DNA of 64,000 bases. Source: a virus. Its lineage: Duplodnaviria; Caudoviricetes. The translations under genes and the position numbers were made by a program. The notes beneath the pieces were generated by a model. The model saw only the letters and a list, made by a program, of their open reading frames with translations, was not told where the DNA came from and searched no databases. Positions within the stretch are counted from its first letter, which is position 1; each line of letters starts with the position of its first letter. Of this stretch, positions 50,651 to 62,581 are shown piece by piece. The stretch lies in IMG/VR virus record IMGVR_UViG_3300044655_001017; one strand, written 5' to 3'.

Positions 50651-52618
50651 ATGAGCAAAATTATCGGAATCGACTTAGGTACAACAAATTCATGCGTAGC
50701 AATCTTAGAAAACGGAATTGCTAAAGTAATTGAAAACGCAGAAGGTACACGCACAACCCCCTCAATCATCGCATACACTAACGACGAAATCCTAGTTGGT
50801 GCAGCAGCAAAACGTCAATCAGTAACAAATCCAAAAAACACATTATATGCTGTTAAGCGTCTTATTGGTCGTAAATTTGATGAGTCAGCTGTACAGAAAG
50901 ATATTGACTTAATGCCATATAGCATTATTAAAGCTGAAAACGGTGATGCATGGGTAGAAGCAAATGGTGAGAAACTAGCTCCTCCACAAGTGTCTGCAGA
51001 AATCTTACGTAAGATGAAAAAAACTGCAGAGGACTATTTAGGTACAGAAGTAACTCAAGCAGTTATTACCGTACCTGCATACTTTAACGATTCACAACGT
51101 CAAGCAACTAAAGATGCAGGACGTATTGCTGGATTAGAAGTATTGCGTATTATTAATGAACCAACTGCTGCAGCATTAAGCTACGGTGTTGATAAGTCTG
51201 ACAAGAAAGACCGCAAAGTTGCTGTATTTGACTTAGGTGGTGGTACTTTTGATATTAGTATTATTGAGATCGCTAATGTTGACGGTGATAAACAAATTGA
51301 AGTATTATCTACAAACGGTGATACGTTCTTAGGTGGTGAAGATTTTGATCAACGTTTAATGGATCATTTGATTGATGAATTTAAGAAAGAGTCTGGCGTA
51401 GATCTTAAAACTGATACAATGGCGTTGCAACGTTTAAAAGAAGCTGCTGAAAAAGCTAAAATTGAATTGTCAAGTACTGCACAAACAAATGTTAACTTAC
51501 CATATGTTACTGCAGATGCTACAGGTCCAAAACACTTAAATGTAACAGTAACTCGCGCTAAGTTTGAATCATTAGTTGACGACTTAGTACAACGTTCAAT
51601 TGAACCATGTAAAATTGCAATTGCAGATGCTAAAGTACAATTGTCAGATATTGACGAAATTATTTTAGTAGGTGGTCAAACACGTATGCCTAAAGTACAA
51701 GAAGCAGTTGAAGCATTCTTTAGAAAAGCACCACGTAAAGACGTTAATCCAGATGAATCTGTTGCTGCAGGGGCTGCTATTCAAGGTGCAGTGTTAGCAG
51801 GTGACAAAACTGACGTATTGTTACTTGACGTTACTCCATTAAGTTTAGGTATTGAAACAATGGGCGGAGTGTTTACTAAGTTAATTACTAAAAATACAAC
51901 TATTCCAACTAAAGCAAGCCAAACATTTTCAACAGCAGAAGATAATCAACCTGCAGTTACTATTAAAGTAGGACAAGGTGAACGCGACTTGTATCGTTAC
52001 AATAAACAACTTGGCGAGTTTAACTTAGAAGGTATTGACTCAGCGCCGCGAGGTCAACCACAGATTGAAGTAACATTTGATATCGATGCCAATGGTATTA
52101 TGCATGTAAGTGCTAAAGATAAAAATACAGGCAAAGAGAACAAAATTACTATTAAATCTGATTCGGGATTAACTGACGATGAGATTCAACGTATGGTGCG
52201 TGAAGCTGAAGAAAACGCAGAATCAGATGCTAAGGCTAAAGAGTTAATTGAAGCGCGTAACAGTGCAGAAGCACAATCACATTCTTTGAAGAAAGACTAC
52301 GATGAAGTTAAAGACGAGTTAACTGAAGAAGAACGTACTGCGTTTGATGATGCATTAATTGCACTCGAAACTGCACGCGACGGTGAAGAAGTTGAAGCAA
52401 TTACTGAAGCAACTACTAAACTTTTTGAGGCAGCAAGTCCTGTTTTTACTAAAAAACAAGAAGTTGAACAAGCCAAAGCTGCTGCAGATGCAAAAGGCGA
52501 AGCAGACGTTACTGCAGAATTTACTGAAGTAACCTCTGAAGAAACTGTTGAAGACACTGTTGAAGACACTGTTGAAGAAACTGTTGAAGAAGCCACAGTA
52601 GCAGAACCAAAAGCATAA
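50651..52618 (+). CDS. dnaK: Hsp70 chaperone DnaK
   Basis: [45 protein letters not shown]. Confidence 0.98.
52541..52588 (+). repeat. 12-bp tandem repeat x4 in the dnaK 3' end (ETVE/DTVE)
   Basis: ga(a/c)actgttgaa x4. Confidence 0.9.
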
Positions 52619-55647: not shown

Positions 55648-55705
55648 ATACACATACTTTATAAATGTATAGAATAATCTTAAACGTAACTTACTACAAC
55701 ATACT

Positions 55706-56215
55706 ATGCCATTAAACATTAACAATTATAAAATTGACGGTTTTCAAAAAGTTTGCGATATAACACTAAAATTAGATAATCATAATCATTGGTATTATGA
55801 AAATATAAATTATCAAGTTATGTATGATACTCATCGATCATGGGTATACTTTATTGTAGAAGATAATGAAATTATAAAAGTTGGGGAAACTGGTAATCCA
55901 TTAGGTATTCAAAAAGTTGAATTTTGGTGGGACCAACAACCGTTGTCCGGTAGCAAATGTCGAATAGGACGATACATTAACGGAGATGGTACTGATGAAT
56001 CTATTAGAGAGCAGTTGTTTGAATCGATGCATAAAAAACTTAACAGCTACTCTTTTTGGGCTAAAAAATGTAACTACATATCATCACCCTTTACAATTTG
56101 GGGTAACCCTTACACTACTAATGCAACTATACACAAAGATTTAGAAAAACAGTATTTAGATTTTATTAAAACACATTCAGGCACATTACCTAGATTAAAC
56201 AAAAGTCGATCTTAA
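55706..56215 (+). CDS. GIY-YIG-like putative nuclease
   Basis: WVYFIV...IIKVGET...R...E pattern, weak. Confidence 0.45.
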   Translation: MPLNINNYKIDGFQKVCDITLKLDNHNHWYYENINYQVMYDTHRSWVYFIVEDNEIIKVGETGNPLGIQKVEFWWDQQPLSGSKCRIGRYINGDGTDESIREQLFESMHKKLNSYSFWAKKCNYISSPFTIWGNPYTTNATIHKDLEKQYLDFIKTHSGTLPRLNKSRS

Positions 56216-56251
56216 ATTATAACATTAACCTTAAATCACACAAAACATAAT

Positions 56252-56914
56252 ATGACAAAATTAAACATCAGAGTAAATAAATTAGCTAAATTAAACATCG
56301 GTCCACGTCCAATTTGCCCAGTATGCAATGTTAAAGAGTGTACTATTGGTAACAAGAAAAAAGACGGAACTTATAGGTTTCAATCAATGTGTACACCATG
56401 CAAACATAAACATCTTGAACAGAAGAATGGTGTGAAATATGCAGTGCGGTGTGCTCAAAATGCAGGTTGTAATTCAATAAAAGAAAACAATGATCGTATT
56501 GCAAAAGAAAACGGGTTTTCATCACATAAATCATACACAGCTCATTTAAATCTACAAATTGCATTAGATAATGGATTTAAAACATATAGAGCATATAGAG
56601 ATCATTTAAACTTACAACTTGCATTAGATAATGGTTTTAGTAATTATACCGATTACGCAAATTCAAAACATGTATGGAGACAACATAGAATGGATTATTG
56701 CGAAAATATAGATGGAAGATTAGGTGAACCGTGTACTAGTACTATTTTATTATCTGGCCAACTAGAGGTTGATCATATTTTTCCTAAAGGTAGAGCTAAA
56801 CGTTTAGGTTGGACTGATGAGCAAATTAATCATCCTAGCAATTTACAAACATTATGTAGAAATTGCCATTCTTATAAAACAATCACAAATAGAGACAGAT
56901 CTATTAATCAATAG
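56252..56914 (+). mobile_element. HNH endonuclease with Zn ribbon and 20-aa internal repeats
   Basis: CPVC/CTPC; NGF...HLNLQ.ALD repeats; LEVDHIF...NLQTLCRNCHSYKT. Confidence 0.85.
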
Positions 56915-57254
56915 TAATTTTATCATCAGATATAATAATTGCAGGGATAGCTCTTATTCCTGCAAGTCTTGCAGCAAAGTATCTGTGATGCCCATCTAAT
57001 ACCATATACTTATCTTCATGTTTTTTTACCATGATAGGTGGTATCTTTTCTCCCATATGATATGCTTTAGCAATCTTCATCATATTCTGCTTACTTGTAG
57101 GATCTTTCATTTTGTTAGGATGTTCAAATGTTATTAATTGTGACATCGGAATTTCTTTAACTTTATGTCGTTCTTTTGCATTCCAACTATTAATACTAGT
57201 ACCATAGTTGTCCGGATCAGTTGACATGTGGGCAGTTACTTCAAATATTCGCAT
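56904..57254 (-). CDS. ParB/Srx-like domain protein
   Basis: IPPIMVKK..DKYMVLDGHHRYFAA; start MRIFEV at 57254 after a GGAG SD. Confidence 0.85.
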   Translation of the reverse strand: MRIFEVTAHMSTDPDNYGTSINSWNAKERHKVKEIPMSQLITFEHPNKMKDPTSKQNMMKIAKAYHMGEKIPPIMVKKHEDKYMVLDGHHRYFAARLAGIRAIPAIIISDDKITID

Positions 57255-57264
57255 AGCAATCTCC

Positions 57265-57363
57265 AAAAAAAAGCCCTGTTCACAGTCGTAAGAGGTAGCG
57301 AATCTCAAACTGTCAGGTAGGGCAACCTTGACGCCTTAGGCACATAAATGTGACGGTCCTAAG
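57265..57363 (-). ncRNA. Candidate structured 5' leader (attenuator/riboswitch-like) of the ParB-like gene
   Basis: Minus strand: cttagg/cctaag with inner cacat/atgtg; then gccct/agggc enclosing acagt/actgt and gag/ctc; U8 tract; then SD; TAAATA promoter just upstream (57374-57379). Confidence 0.55.
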
Positions 57364-57376
57364 TTGTTAAAGTTAT

Positions 57377-58168
57377 TTATCTTTTATTTCGTTCGTAAAT
57401 ATATTCACCATCATCGTCATAGATAGGATCTTTAATTAACACTAACGGTCCTACTTGTACAGCACGTGATCCACCAATAATAGGTCTTTCAGTTTTTCTA
57501 TCATAGAAGAATGCATGTCGTTTAGGATCCATACCTACCTGAGCCCAATTCTTATCATGTAACGCAGCCATTGCTTCTGTCTTTGCATCTTCAGGCGATA
57601 CTTCTTCCCAAAAACCTTTTAGAGTAGCAATTGGAACTTTACTAGTTTCGCCTGTTGCAATGTTCATTGAACCTTTTTGCGGTAACTTAATAGTTACATT
57701 ATTAATGACTGCTGCTCCTCTATGAGAAATAGCAATTCCAGCTTTATTGTGAATAGTTGGAACCCACACATTTTTATGATTATACGCAGGGATGTCTAAT
57801 CGTAATTGCACCACATCACCGTCTGCAATATGTGAATTAATCTTATAACGTTTATCAGCATCTAACCCGCGATTCATATCTTTTTCACTTGCAGGTGTAG
57901 GAACATAATCATACGGTCTTACTGGTTTATATTTTTTTACTAATGCTGTATATTCTGCTCTAGACATCTTTCCAGCTTTAACAGCTTGAGCTGCAGCTTT
58001 TAATTCTGGATGATCTTCTAAACTAAATCTTAATTCTGGTCTTTCAGGTGTCTGACCGTAGTCTTTTTTAACACGTTTTTGTTTTACTCTTGGTTGTAAA
58101 TCTGTAGGTTCATCTTGAAACGGAAGTCCTAATTGTCTATCATTTTCAAGTAATTCAGAAATTCTCAT
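57377..58168 (-). CDS. Late hypothetical protein (MRISELLEND)
   Basis: 263-aa ORF, AGGA SD, TAAATA on minus strand near 58192-58197. Confidence 0.75.
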   Translation of the reverse strand: MRISELLENDRQLGLPFQDEPTDLQPRVKQKRVKKDYGQTPERPELRFSLEDHPELKAAAQAVKAGKMSRAEYTALVKKYKPVRPYDYVPTPASEKDMNRGLDADKRYKINSHIADGDVVQLRLDIPAYNHKNVWVPTIHNKAGIAISHRGAAVINNVTIKLPQKGSMNIATGETSKVPIATLKGFWEEVSPEDAKTEAMAALHDKNWAQVGMDPKRHAFFYDRKTERPIIGGSRAVQVGPLVLIKDPIYDDDGEYIYERNKR

Positions 58169-58271
58169 TTTGTATCCTTAATCATATTCTATATTTATCA
58201 TTATTTCTGCTGGCTTTATTTTTACTCTTTTTGTAGGTAAATACGTTAGTAACTTTATCAAGGAGAGAGAA

Positions 58272-58745
58272 GTGAACAAAATCTTAGTATTATTACTAGT
58301 ATCATCATCAGCATTTTCTGCTGAACTCCAACACTCATTTAATAGTCCATCATTTAGCGGAATTGGGTATAGCAATCACATTCTAACTATCCAACAGTTA
58401 GAACAACAAGGTGTTGAAAAAAACAAATCACTTGCAGATTCATTAGCAGCTAAAGCAGCATCAGCAGCAGCTAATACGCCAGCGGCTAAATTCTTAGCAA
58501 ACTTAGAATCAAGGATATATTCACAACTAGCAAAACAACTTACTGATAGCATGTTTGCCGAAGGGTCTACATGTACTATCCCAGGTGCAACTTGTGGAAA
58601 TATTCCAGACTTAGGTGGAAACACGGTTACATGGGGATTAGGATCAGGTACAGATAATGGACTAATTATTATCAATATTACAAGTAATAGTAATCCAAAT
58701 CAAACAACAACAATGAAAGTACCGGCCGGTACTTTCTATTTTTGA
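58272..58745 (+). CDS. csgF: Curli assembly protein CsgF-like (GTG start)
   Basis: Signal peptide then ELQHSFNSPSFSG (cf. the CsgF FxFxNPxFGG motif), FLANLESRIYSQLAKQL. Confidence 0.75.
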   Translation: MNKILVLLLVSSSAFSAELQHSFNSPSFSGIGYSNHILTIQQLEQQGVEKNKSLADSLAAKAASAAANTPAAKFLANLESRIYSQLAKQLTDSMFAEGSTCTIPGATCGNIPDLGGNTVTWGLGSGTDNGLIIINITSNSNPNQTTTMKVPAGTFYF

Positions 58746-58752
58746 GGTAACT

Positions 58753-59607
58753 ATGAAAAAATTACTATTATTAGCAATTATTCTACTACTACAAGGATGT
58801 GCAGCAAGTAGTTCAATTGAAAAACTTATAACAGGTGAACAGTTTGACGATCCAATCGTTGACAATACACCGTATTTAAAAAAAGAAGAAAATTATTTAG
58901 CTCCGCCGCAAGGTGGACCTATTCCAATTGCAGTATACGGTTTTACGGATAAAACTGGACAACGCAAATCAATACCAAACATTGCTAGTTTAAGTTCTGC
59001 AATTACTCAAGGTGCTGAAAACTATTTAATCAAGTCATTAAAAGAAGTCGGTGATAGTCGTTGGTTTGTAGTACTAGAACGCGTTGGCTTAGACAACCTA
59101 GTTAAAGAACGTCAAATGATTCGCCAAACACGCGAACAGTTCCAAGGCAAAGATGCTACTTCATTACCGGCTATGACATTTGCTGGAATTATTGCAGAAG
59201 GTGCAGTTGTTGGTTATGATTCAAATACAATCACAGGCGGAGCAGGTGTAAGGATATTTGGCATAGGTGGCGAAACACAATATCAAAGCGATACTGTTAC
59301 AGTAAGTTTAAGAATTGTATCAGTAACATCTGGTGAAATTCTAACATCAGTTGTAGTAACTAAAACTGTACTAAGTTATATGGATAAAGTCGGTGTATTA
59401 AGAATGTTCTCTTCAGATACTAAAGCATTAGAAACAGAAGTGGGCGGAAGTATAAATGAAAGTATTAACAAAGCGACTAACAAAGCTATTCAAGCCGCTG
59501 TGGTCGAAACTATTAAAGAAGGTGCTAAGAAAGGTCACTGGGCTTTTAAAGAAGCGCCACAGGAGCTAAAAAATGAAACAACTAATACTACTACTACTAA
59601 TAAGTAG
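58753..59607 (+). CDS. csgG: Curli secretion channel CsgG-like lipoprotein
   Basis: Lipobox LQGC; IAVYGFTDKTGQRK, WFVVLERVGLDNLVKERQMIR, GAVVGYDSN..TGGAG, DTVTVSLRIVSVTSGEIL. Confidence 0.92.
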   Translation: MKKLLLLAIILLLQGCAASSSIEKLITGEQFDDPIVDNTPYLKKEENYLAPPQGGPIPIAVYGFTDKTGQRKSIPNIASLSSAITQGAENYLIKSLKEVGDSRWFVVLERVGLDNLVKERQMIRQTREQFQGKDATSLPAMTFAGIIAEGAVVGYDSNTITGGAGVRIFGIGGETQYQSDTVTVSLRIVSVTSGEILTSVVVTKTVLSYMDKVGVLRMFSSDTKALETEVGGSINESINKATNKAIQAAVVETIKEGAKKGHWAFKEAPQELKNETTNTTTTNK

Positions 59608-60340
59608 TCCAGTGTTTGCAGCAAGTACAGGAGTAAACAATGTATACATTGAACAAGTTGGAAATGCAAATACAATCGTTATTGATCAAATTGGCGGAGG
59701 AAATAATGTCGGTGGCACAGCACTTAATGTTCCTTTACTATACAGTTCTAGTAACACTATTATATCGTTTGTACCAGCTACTGCAAGCTCATCAAATTAT
59801 GCGACTATTACGGGTAATTCTAACCAAGTAACCTTGTCGCATACTGGAGATACTAACTGGGCACAATATAATATTAGCGGAGCAAATAATATATATTCTA
59901 GTATCATTAAAGGTAATCAAAATCAAACGTTACTTAACATTGGACTTGGTACTCCAGTAAATGCTAATGTTGTTACTGAAACAATTACTGGTGATTTAAA
60001 CTATGTTATACAAAGTTTAACTAAAGGTAGCATACATAGTACAATTGATATTAATGGCAGTAACAATGAAGTTACAACACGATTAAATAGCACTAACGGT
60101 GTAGTAGATACAACAGTAAGTGGTGGGTTTAACAGTTTCATTAACGAACAAGACGATGGAGGTATTGGGCATCATCTAGTACAAGATTTTACTGGGAGTT
60201 ATAACTCTGTTGTAACACAGCAGCAAGGTACTAACGATTCTATGATAGATATTAGTACAATTGGAGATCATAATACAATTACTGTAAGGTCAACTAATTC
60301 AAGCAGTATTGTAAATTCAAATACAGCCGTTTCGAGGTAA
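59573..60340 (+). CDS. Curlin-like (CsgA/CsgB-type) secreted repeat protein
   Basis: Signal peptide; repeated N-x-x-x-x-x-Q-x-G-x-x-N units (NNVYIEQVGNAN, NSVVTQQQGTND). Confidence 0.75.
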   Translation: MKQLILLLLISSPVFAASTGVNNVYIEQVGNANTIVIDQIGGGNNVGGTALNVPLLYSSSNTIISFVPATASSSNYATITGNSNQVTLSHTGDTNWAQYNISGANNIYSSIIKGNQNQTLLNIGLGTPVNANVVTETITGDLNYVIQSLTKGSIHSTIDINGSNNEVTTRLNSTNGVVDTTVSGGFNSFINEQDDGGIGHHLVQDFTGSYNSVVTQQQGTNDSMIDISTIGDHNTITVRSTNSSSIVNSNTAVSR

Positions 60341-60341
60341 T

Positions 60342-61427
60342 ATGTGGTTCTTAGTTTTTTTATTATTAGTTGTTAATAATGCTTATGCAGGAATTGGTGC
60401 AGTTTCAGACGCTAAAGGCACTGCATGCAGCATTGAACGTAACAAAGAAAAACTTGCAGGTGATAAAGGCGCATCTATAGAAAGTATGGATGCGTACATT
60501 ACCGGCGGGTGTGTTAGTAACATTCTATTTAAAGATGAAACAAAAGTTAAAATTACAGAGAATAGTAGATTAGTAATAGATGACTTTGTATACGATCCAA
60601 AACAATCAGATGCAGGTAAACTTGCATTAAAAGTTGGATTAGGTACTGTTAGATATGCAAGTGGGCAAATAGCAAAAGCTAATCCACAGCAAGTAGGTAT
60701 TCAAACTCCCACTGCTACAATTGCAGTACGTGGTACTGACTTTACTATGACAGTAGATGAAACTGGCCAATCTCTTATTGTACTACTTCCAAGTTGCAAA
60801 GATGAGAAAGATGTTAAGCAATATGAACTACAAGAGAATATTTGTAAAGTAGGTAAAATTGTAGTTACAAATGATGCAGGGGAAGTTACTTTAGATCAAG
60901 CGTTTCATGCAACTTATGTTAGTAGTAGAACTGCAATGCCAACTGCTCCGGAAGTTATTAGTTTGGTAGAATCTAAAATCAATAATAACTTAATCATTTC
61001 TGCGCCAAAAGAAATTGTTAACGCAATTAAACAAGCAGCTAGAACAAAGAAAGATGAAGAACAAGAAGATTTAGAAAAAGAAGCAACTAGACGATTAGCA
61101 AATCAAGTAGCTAAAACTCAAGAAACTATTGCTGCTAGAATAGAACAGATTGCAGAAACTATACAATCTATTGCACCTTGCGACCCGACATCGCATGTAT
61201 GTGTAATGTGGGAACAACCTAATGCAGACGGTACACAAAAAGGTAAAGGTACTGCATATCGTATAACCCCAGATGAACACTATGCTGAAATTAAAACACA
61301 AGGGTATACTTCTAATACTGCTATATCTATTATTCAAAATGATACTACTGCATCTACAATGATAGGCGACAGCAGTGGCGGTAATACAATAAGTATTACA
61401 CAAACTACCGGAGTGTTAAGACGATGA
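60342..61427 (+). CDS. Secreted FecR-domain protein
   Basis: Signal peptide; KVKITENSRLVID, LKVGLGTVRYASG, IQTPTATIAVRGTDF. Confidence 0.85.
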   Translation: MWFLVFLLLVVNNAYAGIGAVSDAKGTACSIERNKEKLAGDKGASIESMDAYITGGCVSNILFKDETKVKITENSRLVIDDFVYDPKQSDAGKLALKVGLGTVRYASGQIAKANPQQVGIQTPTATIAVRGTDFTMTVDETGQSLIVLLPSCKDEKDVKQYELQENICKVGKIVVTNDAGEVTLDQAFHATYVSSRTAMPTAPEVISLVESKINNNLIISAPKEIVNAIKQAARTKKDEEQEDLEKEATRRLANQVAKTQETIAARIEQIAETIQSIAPCDPTSHVCVMWEQPNADGTQKGKGTAYRITPDEHYAEIKTQGYTSNTAISIIQNDTTASTMIGDSSGGNTISITQTTGVLRR

Positions 61428-62581
61428 GAATTTTATTTTTCATATTGTTGTTATGGTATTCAAATGTAGATGCAGTTCCTAACTATGTACCACTTAGACC
61501 ATTAATGTTAGGATATATTCCATCAAGTATGAATAGTCCAGGTGGTGAGTTCTTTAGTAATGCGTTTGACGGTAATCCCGGAACTAAGTATCTTAACTTT
61601 GATAAACTTAGTGCAGGTGTTATGCTTAAACTGTCACAAGGTAAAGTTATTAGTCAAGTACAATTTACTACAGCAAATGATTCTCCAGAACGAGATCCTG
61701 CTAGTTTTAGTTTATTTGGAAGTAATGATACATCAGGAGGTTGGACGTTAATAACTTCTCAACTTATTGCATTACCTAATAATAGACTTGCAGTTAGTCC
61801 AGTATACCCTATTAACAATACAGAAGCATACGTGTATTATAATATAACGTTTCCAATTGTTAAAGACGCAGGTGCTGCTAACTCTATGCAAATTGCAGAA
61901 ATAACATTCTTGTACGATCAAAATGATCCTACTACTAGCATTGACTTAGGAAGTACGTTACCATGGACTACGTTTCCAAGTGTATATTGCTGCGGTGGCA
62001 GTGGATCTTCATTTAATGCCGCTCCTGCTAATACTGCAAAAGTAACGGCTTTTACATCTAGATCAACTACTGACAATCAAGTATATATAGATCAGTTAGG
62101 AAACAATAACAAGATTACAATTGATCAAAAAGGTACTAACAACAATTATGTAAATTACAGCAGTAATGGCTCGTCTAACACTACTACTATTAATCAAACT
62201 GCAGCCAATAACTTACAAGTAAACTTTATTGACTTAACAGTAAATGGCAATTCTAATTTGCTTAGTATAGATCAAGATACATATACTGCCGGGTTTAGTA
62301 AAGGTGCTTTTATAAATATAACTGATAATAACAACAGTTTAATTTTACAACAAAAGGGTAGTGGAAATTATTATGCTAATATTGAATTATCTGGTGGTAA
62401 TAAACATGTTGATATATTACAACAAGGTGCAGCAAATCATATGACTGATATTACCTTATCAGGACAACCAGTAGACTTGAGTCTACAACAGAGTGGTGCT
62501 ACTCAACAGTATTACTCAATAAACTTTAATTGTGCTACAGTAGGAGGATGCGCACCAATTCAAGTACAACAAGGGCAATAA
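61424..62581 (+). CDS. Secreted discoidin (F5/8 type C)-like plus curlin-repeat hybrid protein
   Basis: Signal peptide; NAFDGNPGTKY...TANDSPERDPASFSLFGSND...WTLI; C-terminal NQVYIDQLGNNN-type curlin repeats. Confidence 0.75.
   Translation: MRILFFILLLWYSNVDAVPNYVPLRPLMLGYIPSSMNSPGGEFFSNAFDGNPGTKYLNFDKLSAGVMLKLSQGKVISQVQFTTANDSPERDPASFSLFGSNDTSGGWTLITSQLIALPNNRLAVSPVYPINNTEAYVYYNITFPIVKDAGAANSMQIAEITFLYDQNDPTTSIDLGSTLPWTTFPSVYCCGGSGSSFNAAPANTAKVTAFTSRSTTDNQVYIDQLGNNNKITIDQKGTNNNYVNYSSNGSSNTTTINQTAANNLQVNFIDLTVNGNSNLLSIDQDTYTAGFSKGAFINITDNNNSLILQQKGSGNYYANIELSGGNKHVDILQQGAANHMTDITLSGQPVDLSLQQSGATQQYYSINFNCATVGGCAPIQVQQGQ

Follow-up and report, generated by a model that had tools for sequence, protein, structure and literature searches.

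A conserved, structured single-copy element in uncultured large T4-like phages that is probably a gene for a non-coding RNA of about 100 nt

The window, by which the whole 64,000-nt stretch of the IMG/VR record IMGVR_UViG_3300044655_001017 (Duplodnaviria; Caudoviricetes) is meant here, contains a minus-strand island that consists only of a gene for a 263-aa protein, a structured element and a ParB-like gene. The 263-aa ORF (57377-58168, minus strand; 57377-58198 together with the promoter-like heptamer in front of it) has no assigned function, and its product matches no Pfam or PHROG family. Related proteins, with about 45 invariant residues, are encoded at no fewer than 574 IMG/VR viral loci and in the Roseobacter phages CRP-207 and CRP-9; no such RNA is found downstream of the distant members. 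On the other side of the element, a GGAG (57264-57261) stands 6 nt from the ATG (57254-57252) of a 116-aa ORF that has no promoter motif of its own (56904-57264 including the GGAG, minus strand). This gene was called ParB-like in an earlier interpretation of the letters without database searches (referred to below as the sequence-only reading), and the assignment is borne out by a ParB_N domain (Pfam PF02195, E 4.8e-7, above the cut-off) and by matches to ParB-like families of PHROGs. It is convergent with an HNH endonuclease gene on the plus strand (56252-56914; Pfam HNH, E 6.6e-8), with an overlap of 11 nt. In loci L010 and L016, which lack the HNH gene, ParB is directly followed by the homologue of window 55705-56216, and thus the HNH gene looks like a recent mobile insertion. 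Beyond the 263-aa gene, three small minus-strand ORFs (58178-58865) are probably spurious; they overlap a CsgF-like gene on the plus strand (58272-58745, Pfam CsgF). The window also includes a full-length DnaK/Hsp70 gene (50651-52618, plus strand); its matches in the phage collection, in part annotated as bacterial DnaK, are at most 71% identical to it.

All sequence features noticed in the sequence-only reading are present on the minus strand at 57265-57380, and the boundary at 57265-57264 is followed by the GGAG and the ATG of the ParB-like gene. The TAAATA proposed as a late promoter lies within the heptamer ATAAATA (57380-57374), a T4-type late-promoter-like motif that is enriched upstream of ORFs and that here overlaps the stop codon (57379-57377) of the 263-aa ORF. 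The start of the RNA is predicted about 6 nt downstream of the heptamer, near 57368. Domain 1 (57335-57363) is composed of a 6-bp stem P1 (57363-57358 with 57340-57335), a 5-nt bulge (57357-57353) and a small apical hairpin (57352-57341) with a stem of 4 bp (57352-57349 with 57344-57341) and a loop of 4 nt. The stem and the bulge had been recognized before as parts of a first hairpin, but a fifth apical pair assigned to it has to be given up, since it would leave an impossible 2-nt loop. Domain 1 includes block A (9 nt, 57363-57355), which is identical in all four clades of phages described below. Block B (11 nt, 57326-57336), likewise invariant, is the linker between the domains. Domain 2 (57273-57323) is a 51-nt interrupted hairpin, in which a G/C-rich outer stem of 5 bp (57323-57319 with 57277-57273) is followed by an internal loop with an invariant CCU (57317-57315), by inner stems (57313-57303 with 57293-57282) and by an apical loop (57302-57294) that carries the invariant block C (7 nt, 57301-57295). 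A U8 tract (57272-57265) and the G+C-rich base of domain 2 make up an intrinsic-terminator-like 3' end, and the succession of long interrupted hairpin, U8, Shine-Dalgarno sequence and ATG is seen at 57323-57252 as had been proposed. A pseudoknot between the bulge and the linker, also proposed, is compatible with three clades, in which one U-to-C change keeps the pairing, but only 2 bp of it are left in clade 4. In clades 2-4, the 5' end of the RNA is base-paired with the 5' part of block B.

The domain 2 hairpin of the window has a folding energy of -16.2 kcal/mol and stands directly before the U8 tract. The window sequence folding alone is no better than its shuffles (z -1.4), and folding energy does not separate sense from antisense. 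A simple terminator scan does not list the element, because its stem is interrupted. That the element is more than a product of chance is therefore concluded not from the energy of a single sequence but from the four clades, which keep the fold with different stem sequences.

At least four clades of large T4-like phages from lakes and oceans, all of them uncultured, share the putative RNA. Clade 2 was found by a scan of viral contigs that required only blocks B and C, and block A is present there though it was outside the scan pattern. Clades 3 (viral contigs) and 4 (metagenome contigs) were found by a scan that required only blocks A and B, and in both a long hairpin has block C in its apical loop as well. 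A model made from clade 1 alone, the clade of the window, recovers clade 4 with an E value of 3e-12, clade 3 with 2e-7 and clade 2 with 0.013-0.044. About 11 distinct RNA sequences are known, and blocks A, B and C and the CCU are invariant in all four clades. Conserved homologues in phage metagenomes, whose absence had been set in advance as part of a refutation, thus exist. By model search, the window and each of five relatives, including a complete 372-kb genome (that of L100), have one copy. Clades 1 and 2 are related phages, the TerL proteins of which are 56% identical, and no neighbouring gene is shared across all clades.

Outside these phages, a motif scan of 185,579 prokaryote genomes gave 13 matches, all of them random, in G+C-rich coding DNA without a correctly placed third block. 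None of the 28 new loci from a looser two-block scan of viral contigs fits the model, and blastn with representatives of three clades found no match among 50,697 phage records, cultured phages included. A search of Rfam, as recommended in the sequence-only reading, assigned no family to the window or to clades 1-4: in Rfam 15 nothing overlaps the element in the window at E up to 10, and there is no match in the loci of clades 1-4 at E up to 5. A scan for tRNA and tmRNA found none, and the RNA does not adjoin tRNA genes. In full-text literature on the motifs and on phage small RNAs no description was found; the unnamed candidates of a 2023 survey of structured RNAs in viruses may include it (PMC10690425).

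The same two domains result when each clade is folded separately. The helices were parsed by hand, because model-based alignments followed sequence and not structure in domain 2, and stems that are said here to covary do so by this comparison of approximately 11 distinct sequences, a number too small for formal covariation statistics. All hand-parsed helices are canonical except for one U-U mismatch in P1 of clade 4, while the stem sequences are entirely different between clades. In the outer stem of domain 2, all five positions have changes on both sides between clades. The length of domain 2 is 49-51 nt in every clade; its internal loop always has CCU on the 5' side and an A-rich 3' side, and its apical loop always has the same 7 nt. 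The apical hairpin of domain 1 differs in sequence from clade to clade with the pairing kept. Within clade 2, L102, L105, L108, L109 and L114 are distinguished from L101 and L107 by an 8-nt tandem duplication in domain 1 that makes up a 4-bp apical hairpin, and the shorter variant without it suggests that this hairpin is dispensable or variable.

Six substitutions have occurred in stems within clades, and all of them exchange Watson-Crick and G-U pairs on the minus strand, which would be mismatches on the other strand. This asymmetry bears on the idea that the element works as DNA, by single-strand hairpins for priming, packaging or recombination, and not as RNA. Such a signal would account for the antisense strand folding about as well as the sense strand, for the position of the element 0.7 kb upstream of the terminase gene in clade 2, and for its marking a mosaic junction. 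It is nevertheless highly improbable in our view: besides the stem substitutions, which are G-U-compatible only on the minus strand, a promoter motif upstream and a U-tract downstream give the element a fixed polarity, and in clade 1 it lies about 200 kb from TerL. A comparison of the window with L010 gives identities of 96.3% for the element and 78.9% for the adjacent gene, with 67% at the third codon positions of the gene (Fisher P 1.5e-6). Judged from these identities, the element is under clear purifying selection and is more conserved than the adjacent coding DNA. As far as the aligned sequences tell, it is a conserved, strand-specific structured element with invariant unpaired blocks.

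The heptamer is found 10-11 nt upstream of block A in clades 1 and 2. It matches seven of the eight positions of the T4 late box, with the mismatch at the first position. T4 late promoters have an 8-bp TATA-like box without a -35 element, and deviations from it are most frequent at the first position (PMC2988020). In the window, 13 of the 16 plus-strand copies of the heptamer stand 4-47 nt upstream of ORF starts, and one copy (58198-58192) precedes the 263-aa gene. In G002, a complete relative genome, 37 of 92 copies are located within 50 nt upstream of an ORF against a background of 3.6% (P 3e-29). Genes similar to gp55 are present in relatives of clades 1 and 2 (G002, E 2.5e-7; G004, E 1.3e-4). 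The heptamer sometimes stands only 4 nt before an ATG (window 54726 and 26676, plus strand; L010, about 5198; L100, about 2872), from which leaderless or nearly leaderless late mRNAs would result. Clade 2 has a second heptamer between the RNA and the next gene, so that the RNA is bracketed as a separate unit. In clades 3 and 4 the heptamer is absent. In clade 4, the stop codon of the upstream ORF lies inside block A and the next gene is convergent, so that the RNA there may be a 3' UTR or be processed from a longer transcript.

A G+C-rich stem followed by a U run, as in an intrinsic terminator, is found in the window and, in a weaker form, in clades 2-4. The tails of clades 2-4 start with A and continue with only 3-5 U, and they are regarded as weak terminators for this reason. 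The simplest account would be a plain intrinsic terminator of the 263-aa gene with a chance hairpin in front of it; the stop codon, the hairpin and the U8 tract follow each other in the expected order, and the single-sequence fold has a z of only -1.4. It is hardly credible and is judged to be already refuted, since the RNA is present without the 263-aa gene in L100 and beside unrelated neighbours in three other clades, and since its loops are invariant and its identity is 96% against 79% for the gene. Termination alone is likewise ruled out as the cause of conservation by the invariance of the apical loop, of the CCU and of the two upstream blocks, together with the identities of 96.3% and 78.9%. 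L100 lacks the 263-aa gene but keeps the RNA, with opposite-strand genes on both sides, and the gene is accordingly not a part of the RNA unit.

The presence of a terminator-like structure between promoter and gene had led to a description of the element as an attenuator or a riboswitch-like leader, which would conditionally pass transcription into the ParB-like gene. In the window as well as in L007-L009, L120, L121 and L133, the U8 tract abuts the GGAG and ATG of ParB and no other promoter motif is present, so that ParB would depend on read-through there. Moreover, an alternative pairing of 7 bp (57331-57324 with 57318-57312) would compete with the terminator stem, and a version of 3-4 bp between the end of block B and the CCU, in invariant bases, is possible in all clades. 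The 7-bp pairing is, however, broken by a G-to-A change in L006, L012 and L100. The juxtaposition with ParB is specific to one lineage: genes of the opposite strand occupy the space between the RNA and ParB in L010 (1.3 kb) and L100, the distance being 0.4-1.3 kb in these two, and in L012 other genes are downstream and no ParB is within reach. Downstream genes are unrelated between clades, namely, clade by clade, a ParB_N protein, a 227-aa ORF followed by TerL, a 52-aa ORF, and a convergent gene for a RimK-like ATP-grasp protein. In L100 and L118, where the downstream genes are convergent, the RNA precedes no same-strand gene at all. The members thus neither all lie in the 5' UTR of a regulated gene nor share a class of regulated genes, and no riboswitch of Rfam is matched. 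In this window, the order of conserved folded domain, terminator, ribosome-binding site and gene is indeed that of riboswitches with terminator platforms; yet the present RNA has no conserved downstream gene, is located outside a 5' UTR in two contexts, and counts the apical loop of the terminator itself among its conserved nucleotides. Conditional control of ParB as the purpose of the element is therefore not supported in view of L010, L012 and L100, where the RNA is not before ParB, and a leader of this kind is quite improbable. From its distribution the RNA is evidently not a dedicated switch for the ParB-like gene.

How the two came together can be suggested from the relatives. Close relatives in IMG/VR align almost unchanged across the element, and homology ends at 57262-57264, after the U-tract. 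Detached from the RNA in L010 and L100, ParB is preceded, 4 nt from its ATG, by the heptamer with one mismatch. What is seen in the window thus resembles the result of a local deletion by which ParB and the terminator were fused. At L006, L010, L100, L136 and L148 the U-tract runs into a -35/-10 pair of the sigma-70 type, followed by a different gene cassette in each. This junction of a terminator and an early promoter, equivalent to 57262-57264 of the window, is a hot spot of mosaic exchange. In clade 1 the RNA stands at the head of a curli-type module (CsgF, CsgG and FecR; window 58272-62581, plus strand), and in clade 4 at the tail of a set of FecR, CHASE2 cyclase and RimK genes (L118 2303-8241, minus strand), in which no CsgG or CsgF was identified; in clade 2 no CsgG was found in the 135 kb examined. 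The curli-type or FecR neighbourhood in clades 1 and 4 may be leftover synteny or may reflect a functional link.

The junction brings in the main rival of an RNA gene, a cis-acting 3'-end or insulator cassette, which would stabilize or process a 3' end, stop transcription and move by recombination without any function in trans. In every case the element closes a unit of its own strand or separates two units; related genomes carry it at different places; in clade 4 the stop codon of the upstream ORF is inside it and it faces a convergent gene; and in L006, L010, L100, L136 and L148 homology breaks where the U-tract abuts the early promoter of the sigma-70 type. T4-type phages reportedly have cassettes named promoter-early stem-loop (PeSL). 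The element resembles intrinsic terminators and PeSL in the G+C-rich stem base followed by a U run, in the sigma-70 early promoter that comes next in several relatives, and in the recombination junction. It differs from them in being a single-copy RNA of 100 nt with a second domain and with a loop and a linker that are invariant across clades. PeSL are recognized by many copies per genome that flank mobile cassettes, whereas the window and each of the five relatives have just one copy; cassettes of this kind are dispersed repeats. An ordinary terminator from this lineage of phages is compact, with a hairpin of about 19 nt, and termination would not need a loop and a linker that are invariant across phages whose TerL proteins are only 56% identical. 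Also against a cassette acting in cis are the promoter motif that the element has of its own in clades 1 and 2 and the situation in L100, where there is no same-strand gene upstream. We consider this alternative unlikely, but it deserves more weight than the other ones.

A comparison of the sequences shows a two-domain fold in four clades, with invariant blocks and CCU, covarying stems, a single copy per genome and a position independent of neighbours. The discrete late small RNA of about 105 nt that the sequence-only reading had offered as its second option fits everything found, including the fixed promoter distance in two clades, the single copy and the invariant loops. It is rather probable, though far from settled, that the minus strand of the window encodes, from about 57368 to 57265, a structured RNA that is non-coding, about 100 nt long and present as one gene copy. 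This RNA would represent an undescribed family, would probably have its own late promoter and would act in trans. Late transcription would start from the heptamer at 57380-57374 by a phage gp55-type polymerase, and the domain 2 hairpin with U8 would define the end of the transcript. The invariant single-stranded blocks might bind a protein or pair with another RNA. In the lineage of the window, a deletion would have placed the ParB-like gene directly behind the terminator; since the terminator stands between ParB and both of the upstream heptamers, ParB would probably be transcribed only by read-through from them. For ParB the outcome would be an incidental and probably constitutive attenuator.

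Among known RNAs of T4-type phages, the nearest in kind are T4 rnaC and rnaD ("species 1 and 2" RNAs), which are likewise non-coding, are approximately 120-140 nt long, are annotated as stable and have no assigned function. These belong to a tRNA operon and have tRNA-like 3' ends, whereas the RNA described here has no tRNA neighbours, follows a late-promoter motif of its own and ends in a terminator-like structure. A covariance model search of the T4 genome gave no match (best E 2), and the RNA is unrelated to either of them. A base-pairing sRNA of the Hfq type would bind the chaperone and recognize target mRNAs by a seed; when the window and one complete relative genome were scanned for sequences that could pair with the RNA, only matches at background level were obtained, and a 17-nt match proved to be just another terminator. 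Mimicry of rRNA, 5S RNA, SRP RNA or boxA was considered by eye. The similarities are limited to 7-9 nt, and those of 5S, boxA and the outer stem with 16S were not conserved in other clades when checked; the idea was dropped for these reasons.

A bolder and tentative proposal, which we hold to be doubtful, is that giant T4-like phages have a new functional class of RNA of which this is the first member. It could be a scaffold or decoy for proteins, a ribozyme that cleaves itself, or a ligand sensor that acts in trans. The blocks of 9, 11 and 7 nt and the CCU would then be a tertiary core needed late in infection. Few conserved phage non-coding RNAs have an assigned role, and almost none of these comes from jumbo phages of environmental bacteria. 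Being short, single-copy and clearly under purifying selection, and having invariant nucleotides that are sharply delimited, the element is well suited to biochemical work. It also illustrates that, where a gene is preceded by something like a terminator, gene loss can have brought the two together by accident and not by regulatory design.
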